Shown here piece by piece: positions 40,517 to 40,738 of a stretch of DNA of 64,000 nt (positions are counted from its first letter, which is position 1; each line of letters begins with the position of its first letter). This stretch comes from Porticoccaceae bacterium (GTDB taxonomy: Bacteria; Pseudomonadota; Gammaproteobacteria; Pseudomonadales; Porticoccaceae): positions 310,885-374,884 of the forward strand of contig JBMZBJ010000001.1 in NCBI GenBank assembly GCA_049612225.1, given 5' to 3'. Under the pieces are notes generated by a model. That model was not told where the DNA came from. It saw nothing but the letters and a program-made list of their open reading frames with translations, and made no database searches. Made by a program: the position numbers and the translations under genes.

Positions 40517-40738
40517 TTAAACGCCACTAGTAGCTAGATTGTATCCTACACTAGTTGCAACGCCTATACCAAAGCCAACTGCTGCTCCTGCAAGAGCGCC
40601 AGCAGGGCCTCCAACAATTATCCCAACACCAAAGCCGGCAACAGTAGCTGCCCATGTTGATGCTACACCAAAAGGAATATTTCCAGCTGTAGTGCCGCCA
40701 GTGACTTCGGCTATTTCTGATTTAGTAAGTTCTCTCAT
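40517..40738 (-). CDS. Class II microcin/bacteriocin-like precursor with double-glycine leader
   Basis: The 15-aa leader MRELTKSEIAEVTGG resembles the colicin V leader MRTLTLNELDSVSGG. The 58-aa mature part is Gly/Ala-rich and uncharged. AAGGA ribosome-binding site 7 nt before the ATG. Confidence 0.8.
   Translation of the reverse strand: MRELTKSEIAEVTGGTTAGNIPFGVASTWAATVAGFGVGIIVGGPAGALAGAAVGFGIGVATSVGYNLATSGV

Follow-up and report, generated by a model that had tools for sequence, protein, structure and literature searches.

A candidate class IIa-like microcin precursor of an unnamed peptide family in a relic locus at the 3′ end of groEL

The Pre-Peptide Gene and Its Surroundings

We analyzed a stretch of 64,000 nucleotides (the window) of contig JBMZBJ010000001.1, which contains a gene for a small, glycine-rich pre-peptide. 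The gene is located on the minus strand (40517–40738) within a strain-specific insert of 2.6 kb and low guanine and cytosine (GC) content (38899–41493). The insert also carries a 119-aa open reading frame (ORF), a 57-aa ORF, and the remnants of genes for a rhomboid protease and for a peptidase-containing ATP-binding cassette transporter (PCAT). The translation of the pre-peptide gene, MRELTKSEIAEVTGGTTAGNIPFGVASTWAATVAGFGVGIIVGGPAGALAGAAVGFGIGVATSVGYNLATSGV, consists of 73 aa and divides into the leader MRELTKSEIAEVTGG and the mature part TTAGNIPFGVASTWAATVAGFGVGIIVGGPAGALAGAAVGFGIGVATSVGYNLATSGV. The leader spans residues 1–15 (nucleotides 40738–40694, minus strand), with the double glycine at residues 14 and 15 and hydrophobic residues at positions −4, −7, −12, and −15. 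Class II microcins possess an N-terminal signal of 15–19 aa of the double-glycine type, which ends in GG, GA, or GS (PMC10233263, PMC12219008). The regular expression for this signal, M..Rx[IL]x9G[GAS], was taken from PMC12219008, and the leader fits it exactly. A scan of all six frames of the window with this expression and with its Gram-positive variant returned the peptide ORF and one 45-aa ORF that has no other support. The peptide ORF is the sole credible ORF of the window with a double-glycine signal. A 73-aa ORF with a 15-aa leader of this type is what the original prediction, made by a model from the sequence, had described, and the colicin V leader that it quoted for comparison was given correctly.

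The mature peptide comprises 58 aa with a mass of 5.22 kDa and a grand average of hydropathy (GRAVY) of 1.11. It contains 14 Gly (24.1%), 12 Ala, and 8 Val; Cys is absent, and so are Asp, Glu, Lys, Arg, and His. Glycine occupies mature positions 20, 24, 28, 32, 36, 40, and 44, which gives six consecutive GxxxG steps. Both the composition and the glycine zipper from G20 to G44 had been predicted, and both were confirmed. Further landmarks are W14, a GGP in the center, and the motif GYxLAT in the C-terminal part, the peptide ending in ...GYNLATSGV. The AlphaFold2 model of the precursor has helices at residues 6–13 and 17–70, with a predicted local distance difference test (pLDDT) score of 76.6. 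Pre-peptides of class II microcins are shorter than 150 aa, and their mature parts are Gly-rich, hydrophobic, and of ~5–10 kDa (PMC10233263, PMC12219008); the 73-aa precursor and its 58-aa, 5.22-kDa mature part lie within these limits. The gene has its own Shine-Dalgarno sequence, AAGGA (40746–40750, minus strand; the reverse complement of tgctatttcctt), 7 nt upstream of the ATG, where the prediction had placed a ribosome-binding site. The ORF is annotated as a gene in public data.

The 119-aa ORF (40112–40471, minus strand) starts 45 nt downstream of the peptide gene. Class II microcins are encoded alongside a small inner-membrane immunity protein (PMC10233263, PMC12219008), and such proteins are not recognizable by sequence (PMC10233263). 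The ORF product has a polar N-terminus of ~55 aa followed by a hydrophobic stretch of ~60 aa (residues 57–115 by hydropathy) with about two transmembrane (TM) helices. It is a putative immunity protein by position and topology only. No family match was found in Pfam, NCBIfam, PHROGs, or PADLOC. The ORF is annotated as a gene in L001, and an ORF of 119 codons would arise by chance with P~6e-5 per start in DNA of 31% GC.

Relatives of the Peptide

The peptide was compared with curated models and with large protein collections. The Pfam model Bacteriocin_IIc (PF10439), whose use had been suggested with the original prediction, gave a match (E = 0.0031), yet at 17.9 bits it stays below the gathering score of 27.1. 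The Pfam model MccV (PF17508) aligned to peptide residues 1–50 over model positions 1–51, with E = 0.0083 and 17.1 bits (gathering score 27.0). HMMER, run exhaustively against 1.84 billion cluster representatives (cut-off E ≤ 1e-3), returned 61 matches. About 50 of them are small, full-length relatives of 63–130 aa that have the leader in common and whose core is conserved; they share 40–60% identity with the window peptide over the full length (E down to 6e-14). Relatives from named organisms belong to Xanthomonas vasicola and X. albilineans, both 59% identical to the window peptide and the closest of this kind, and another was found in a metagenome-assembled genome (MAG) of Silanimonas. An alignment of 47 members (A1) gave the consensus MRELxxxEIxxVSGGxxxGxxAMxxAxGWAxTVAGxAxGxxxGGPxGxxxGxxxGFxxGxxxxxGYxLA. 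The window peptide keeps the family pattern, that is, the leader MRELxxxE[IV]xxVxGG and the core A..W...V.G...G...GGP.G...G...GF.......GY.LA.

At E ≤ 0.01, 25 of the 47 members match MccV (best E = 6.8e-7) and 24 match Bacteriocin_IIc (best E = 1.7e-7). TIGR03949 is matched by a single relative, and the Pfam models Gly-zipper_Omp and Gly-zipper_YMGG are matched weakly by seven and four, respectively. The suggestion that the peptide belongs to no named microcin has held up, and its ~50 relatives form an unnamed family. The view that a completely uncharged mature peptide is unusual was overstated: nine of the 47 family cores carry no charge, P0060 and P0034 have no charged residue anywhere, and microcin H47 (MccH47; 60 aa, 26.7% Gly) has a net charge of −0.09 (PMC10233263). 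A word-indexed protein search with the peptide returned only the peptide itself, tblastn against plasmids gave no match, a profile search of the PDB returned only glycine-zipper noise, and neither PADLOC nor PHROGs had a match in the island. The sequences of the Xanthomonas relatives are absent from the supplements of PMC13174018.

A scan of metagenomes with the core-motif pattern found two true family members, both on contigs too short to show neighboring genes. In ~110 of the 120 metagenome matches (L135–L254; e.g., L138, 10848–10927), the motif W...V.G...G...GGP.G...G...G is the N-terminal membrane anchor of a DjlA-type co-chaperone, with the pattern M.W.GKV.GG.FGF..GGP.GA..GA..GH.FD. The shared motif probably reflects convergent use of a glycine-zipper TM helix. 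Because the same motif serves in DjlA-type anchors, the core represents a bona fide design for a membrane-embedded, self-associating helix.

Exporter Genes beside the Relatives

Genes of class II microcins adjoin functional genes for a PCAT, composed of C39 peptidase and ABC domains, and for a membrane fusion protein (MFP) (PMC10233263, PMC12219008). The same neighborhood was observed for relatives of the window peptide. In L010, the order is MFP, PCAT (C39 and ABC), peptide, and ORFs for 109-aa and 94-aa TM proteins. L012 has PCAT, peptide, and ORFs of 108 and 100 aa, and in L014 an integrase gene is followed at some distance by MFP, PCAT, and peptide. The Silanimonas locus L054 has the order MFP, peptide, PCAT, and the C39 and ABC domains of its PCAT were confirmed. 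In X. vasicola (L008), the MFP gene is followed by four double-glycine peptide genes, each with a TM ORF, and then by the family peptide P0004, a rhomboid gene, and the PCAT gene. The original prediction of a class II microcin-like precursor with a double-glycine leader and a glycine zipper is supported, since the relatives share the leader and the core, about half of them weakly match MccV or Bacteriocin_IIc, and they adjoin PCAT and HlyD-type genes. We conclude that the window peptide is very probably a PCAT cargo of an unnamed family. The family itself is probably antibacterial.

The X. vasicola locus is a multi-bacteriocin array (L008, 2793–10219) with four different Gly-rich double-glycine peptides of 65, 72, 75, and 78 aa. 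The array also includes a stand-alone C39 fragment of 110 aa. Just after P0004 lies an uncalled 55-aa ORF with two TM helices (10272–10439), which is immunity-like.

Genomes were also scanned with a DNA pattern for the leader, which gave at least 120 loci (L015–L134), examined as 8-kb pieces. The matches listed include at least 133 small ORFs with the pattern MREL..E[IVM]..V.GG, and their cores are extremely diverse; two of them are true members of the family. Among these matches, the hosts include marine Pseudohongiella, Pseudoalteromonas, Hyphomonadaceae, Caulobacterales, Xanthomonadales, and others, and the cores include 22-aa peptides ending in PIIIDY (Hyphomonadaceae) as well as His-rich and Cys-rich ones. 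A PCAT gene was present within the 8-kb piece at 46 of the 120 loci listed.

The Decayed Exporter of the Island

The part of the insert downstream of the 119-aa ORF contains two gene remnants on the plus strand. The truncated rhomboid protease gene (39059–39628) encodes an N-terminal extension, a TM helix, and the first helix of the rhomboid core. The motif (W/F)R..H..F.H...N is present, and the fragment ends before the catalytic Ser and His. It matches Pfam Rhomboid with E = 1.2e-5, over model positions 2–37 of 143 only, and it aligns weakly but colinearly with the full-length, PCAT-linked rhomboids of L008, L102, and L115. A word-indexed protein search with the fragment returned only the fragment itself.

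The PCAT gene remnant (39609–40070) retains only ~150 codons, from the end of the nucleotide-binding domain. It is 51% identical to residues 526–673 of a Xanthomonas PCAT (tblastn, E = 3e-43). The remnant matches NCBIfam TIGR03797 with 124.9 bits and positions 94–137 of 137 of Pfam ABC_tran. The C39 domain, the TM domain, and Walker A are all gone, and six-frame reading revealed an in-frame stop at 39714–39716. The junction between the two remnants lies near 39610. An internal deletion has fused the front of the rhomboid gene to the end of the PCAT gene. Neither an MFP gene nor a second PCAT gene was found in the window by tblastn and six-frame reading. The functional PCAT and MFP genes that adjoin the peptide genes in L008, L010, L012, L014, and L054 are missing here, and the island by itself has no means of exporting the peptide. 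What remains is a relic and not a functional microcin locus. Because the PCAT has been destroyed and the MFP is missing from the island, the peptide gene and the putative immunity gene persist as an orphan pair. Export of the peptide by this strain today is unlikely.

Rhomboid Genes beside PCAT Genes

In L008 (10642–11685), L102 (4880–5872, minus strand), and L115 (2–1042, minus strand), a full-length rhomboid gene stands between the gene for a double-glycine peptide and that for a PCAT. Their products of 330–347 aa have an N-terminal extension of ~185 aa and a rhomboid domain at about residues 185–330, with GxSGG and His present, and share 23–30% identity with one another. L102 is a megaplasmid of Pseudoalteromonas sp. 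T1lg65 with the operon MFP–peptide–rhomboid–PCAT, in which 22 bp separate the peptide gene from the rhomboid gene and the latter overlaps the start of the PCAT gene. L115 is a gammaproteobacterial MAG. Such adjacency is rare, occurring in 2 of the 120 leader-pattern loci among the matches listed and in one of the five intact loci of the family. The truncated rhomboid gene in the island is not accidental. A functional link between rhomboids and microcins is plausible but unproven, being suggested by gene order and sequence. One could go further and propose that a dedicated rhomboid clade of ~330–350 aa is a previously undescribed accessory of some PCAT microcin systems, which would cleave Gly/Pro-rich membrane peptides for self-immunity or for a second maturation step, the window holding a decayed copy. 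We put this forward tentatively and consider it somewhat doubtful. If functional, rhomboid–PCAT operons would give bacterial rhomboids a long-sought class of natural substrates.

The Low-GC Insert in groEL

Over the segment from about 38.9 to 41.1 kb, the GC content drops to ~30%, compared with ~52% outside it. The insert is positioned exactly within the last codons of groEL, at the 3′ end of the gene, and is flanked by a 17-nt direct repeat, TACATCAT[A/G]CC[G/A]CCCAT, which is the groEL 3′ end (38882–38898 and 41494–41510). In six related contigs with 87–98.6% nucleotide identity, the site is empty: the alignment runs to 41494 and resumes at 38898, and groEL is followed directly by a Urate_ox_N-like gene. 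The insert has brought a new groEL stop codon and a terminator (41429–41462), and the old terminator remains at 38822–38865. The groEL gene of the window (41496–43142, minus strand) has had its last codons swapped for the insert's own copy. Its exact protein sequence is absent from a collection of 15 billion proteins, in which the GroES and the fumarase of the window are present. To our knowledge, the 3′ end of groEL is an unusual integration site. No remnant of an integrase or excisionase was found at the right end of the island (40875–41493), and the window contains no rRNA or tRNA gene. The whole decayed arrangement is 100% identical in an independent public assembly and is therefore not an assembly artefact. 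Our best explanation includes the horizontal acquisition of the insert. A member of the Gammaproteobacteria is suggested as the host by the flanking genes (groES–groEL, fxsA, sbcB, and a class I fumarase gene) and by the occurrence of relatives in Xanthomonas, Silanimonas, and gammaproteobacterial MAGs. For the marine gammaproteobacterium proposed in the original prediction, the observations comprise synteny of the gammaproteobacterial type and sources in metagenomes.

The 57-aa ORF (MKLLTRFELATMKTPEMQVLYRQYFNHLANPHLTDIERSNALGTMQNITNELASRIP; 40875–41048, minus strand) is located upstream of the peptide gene. Its frame stays open to ~41216, for ~55 more codons without a start codon. Searches of Pfam, NCBIfam, PHROGs, and PADLOC gave no match, and the ORF may be what is left of the 3′ part of a longer island gene.

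Proposed Mode of Action and Alternative Explanations

In the reading that we favor and regard as reasonably probable, the product of the gene is the precursor of an unmodified peptide, similar to class IIa microcins and exported by a PCAT, whose locus is a relic in this strain. The 15-residue leader would form a short amphipathic helix, which would be bound by the C39 peptidase domain of a PCAT and cut after Gly15. The 58-residue helical glycine-zipper peptide would then leave the cell via PCAT, MFP, and TolC. Once exported, it might insert into the inner membrane of related bacteria and self-associate through its GxxxG faces. The inserted peptide could collapse the membrane potential or block a membrane protein, and the product of the ORF with two TM helices just downstream would shield the producer.

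Several observations weigh against this reading. No curated model reached its gathering score with the peptide (17–18 vs. 27 bits). NCBIfam gave no match at E ≤ 1, and this includes the leader model TIGR01847, the other check suggested with the original prediction, to which only one of the 47 relatives responded (E = 0.0035). The 'plausible promoter' of that prediction did not hold, as a scan with the sigma-70 consensus found no site upstream of the peptide ORF, and the region as a whole had 7 promoter-like sites vs. 8.7 expected from shuffled sequence. The 119-aa ORF has no similarity to the ORFs downstream of the relatives' peptide genes and no clear Shine-Dalgarno sequence. NCBI labels the relatives 'hypothetical protein', although UniRef uses the label 'Bacteriocin', and published activity data were found for no member of the family. 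Unlike MccV, the peptide stops where the conserved core ends, and a C-terminal module for uptake or receptor binding is not evident. Finally, the search for a PCAT gene covered 64 kb of a contig of ~419 kb, and such a gene may lie elsewhere.

Instead, the peptide might chiefly serve the rhomboid of its locus as a substrate or partner, with cleavage of the Gly/Pro-rich helix inside the membrane either maturing the peptide or, as a form of immunity, destroying the re-entering peptide. A GGP within a helix of small residues is the type of helix-destabilized segment that rhomboids cut, and the fused rhomboid fragment of the window, as well as the full-length rhomboids between peptide and PCAT genes in L008, L102, and L115, would fit this. 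The scarcity of rhomboids at family and leader-pattern loci argues against it. Moreover, the peptides next to the rhomboids of L102 and L115 have cores of other families, L008 has the separate 55-aa immunity-like ORF between peptide and rhomboid, and the window rhomboid is truncated and encoded on the strand opposite to the peptide. The cleavage is predicted, and no paper linking rhomboids with microcins or double-glycine peptides was found in the library searched. We consider this explanation rather unlikely. A different PCAT cargo, either a secreted signalling peptide or a glycine-zipper membrane protein kept in the envelope of the producer, seems improbable. In its favor, double-glycine leaders also export pheromones of the ComC/BlpC type, the antibacterial activity of the family is a prediction, the core motif matches the DjlA anchor, and some relatives weakly match Gly-zipper_Omp and Gly-zipper_YMGG. 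With 58 aa and a GRAVY of 1.1, the peptide however greatly exceeds known double-glycine pheromones in size and hydrophobicity, and no histidine kinase or response regulator gene adjoins the family loci L008, L010, L012, and L014; the pheromone reading was rejected on these grounds. The family loci carry small TM ORFs where an immunity gene would be expected, and Xanthomonas has several paralogous pairs of peptide and TM ORF, a hallmark of bacteriocin loci. In addition, PCATs have no reported role beyond exporting small proteins of this type, and many of these peptides have been validated as antibacterial (PMC12219008).

Two more explanations concern the nature of the product. The best NCBIfam match of the ABC remnant, TIGR03797, is the 'NHLP bacteriocin export ABC transporter permease/ATPase' (the next best model has 95 bits), which would point to a ribosomally synthesized and post-translationally modified peptide (RiPP) of the NHLP/proteusin or lanthipeptide type. 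The remnant is however a generic C-terminal nucleotide-binding domain whose closest full-length relatives (50–51% identity) are ordinary C39-PCATs. The core has no Cys and few Ser or Thr, and the leader has 15 aa and is not a long NHLP or Nif11 domain. A RiPP precursor is highly improbable, and we rejected it because modification genes are missing, both from the island and from the family loci L008, L010, L012, and L014. The ORF could also have arisen by chance, or be the non-functional remnant of a pseudogene, and yield no product. The decay of the island and the negative promoter scan would agree with this, and no selection test is possible because the sole second copy is 100% identical. The ORF is nevertheless full-length, aligns end to end with its ~50 relatives, and keeps all conserved positions; it has a good Shine-Dalgarno sequence, it has stayed intact while its neighbors carry deletions and stops, and it has entered public annotation. 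We judge this explanation quite improbable, and a chance ORF was rejected on the basis of family conservation.

The preferred reading, a class IIa-microcin-like precursor in a relic locus, leaves several fates for the orphan pair. The 'cheater' concept is applied to pneumococcal loci with a defective blpA gene. By analogy, the pair may be an immunity-only ('cheater') locus. It may also depend on a PCAT encoded elsewhere in the genome, or it may be on its way to loss. The window documents the decay of a microcin locus, in which the exporter has been deleted and the peptide and putative immunity genes have been kept, and it bears on the dynamics of producers and cheaters in the environment. Microcins of non-enteric bacteria are now expected (PMC12219008, PMC13174018; for Xylella, PMC11885251), and the family of ~50 clusters adds to the class II microcin-like peptides that are common well outside the Enterobacteriaceae (PMC12219008). 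Because the family resembles the N-terminal module of MccV and MccH47 and has no uptake module, it offers a minimal model for how an uncharged glycine-zipper helix might kill and cross the outer membrane.

Comparison with Known Systems

The first system to be compared is MccV (colicin V, CvaC), a class IIa microcin of E. coli. Both peptides have a 15-aa double-glycine leader (MRTLTLNELDSVSGG in MccV, MRELTKSEIAEVTGG in the window) and a Gly/Ala-rich, hydrophobic N-terminal half of the mature part. The family consensus 'xGDIAMGLAG' matches 'GRDIAMAIG' of MccV. Alignment of the family profile with MccV by hhalign gave a probability of 95.5 over the leader and 'GRDIAMAIG', the MccV segment being SGGASGRDIAMAIG; the leader of the MccV sequence used was confirmed. 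The Pfam MccV matches and this alignment show that the family resembles the leader and the hydrophobic N-terminal module of MccV. Export by PCAT and MFP in the relatives and a small TM ORF adjoining the peptide gene are further points in common. In contrast to MccV, the window peptide lies below the Pfam gathering threshold, has neither Cys nor charged residues, and is encoded in a chromosomal island of a non-enteric bacterium with a destroyed exporter. It also lacks the C-terminal ~50 residues of MccV, which include the disulfide and the module for Cir-dependent uptake (PMC10233263, PMC13174018).

MccH47 (MchB, class IIb) is similar in size and composition, with a mature part of 60 vs. 58 aa and 26.7% vs. 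24.1% Gly, and like the window peptide it is free of Cys and of charged side chains (PMC10233263). It also has the central 'GGP.G' within a Gly/Ala/Val helix. BLASTP of the window peptide against MccH47, in a sequence consistent with the table in PMC10233263, showed 31% identity (E = 0.007), a similarity that is marginal and partly compositional. The window peptide has no C-terminal Gly/Ser-rich tail for siderophore attachment, and the island has no modification genes of the mchA/mchCD type; therefore, the peptide does not belong to class IIb. The target of MccH47, the proton channel of ATP synthase, is not transferable to the window peptide. The MccV-like 'cvaC' of Xylella and the microcins predicted with cinful in Xanthomonas are likewise double-glycine peptides of non-enteric Gammaproteobacteria (PMC11885251, PMC13174018, PMC10233263). 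They occur in arrays of multiple peptide and immunity genes with PCAT and MFP, and the X. vasicola relative is located in such an array. They are at most possible members of the window family, and none of them has a defined target.

Gram-positive bacteriocins of classes IIb and IIc (lactobin A/cerein 7B type) share with the window peptide the double-glycine leader and a helical, GxxxG-rich membrane peptide, in line with its weak PF10439 match. They differ in that this match is below the threshold, TIGR03949 is found in a single relative only, the window shows no evident partner peptide, and a Gram-negative host needs MFP and TolC. Pneumococcal blp loci with a disrupted blpA have also kept peptide and immunity genes while the dedicated PCAT is inactivated, and export of blp peptides by another PCAT (ComAB) is documented in work cited in PMC4860687. 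Intramembrane proteases of the Abi/CAAX type encoded inside Gram-positive bacteriocin loci (Kjos 2010, as cited in PMC4860687; PMC9298176) set a precedent for the rhomboid. Both parallels are analogies only; they concern another phylum and, for the protease, a CPBP metalloprotease vs. a rhomboid serine protease. By kind, the window peptide belongs with the known class II (IIa-like) microcins and double-glycine bacteriocins, as an added member that marks an unnamed family.

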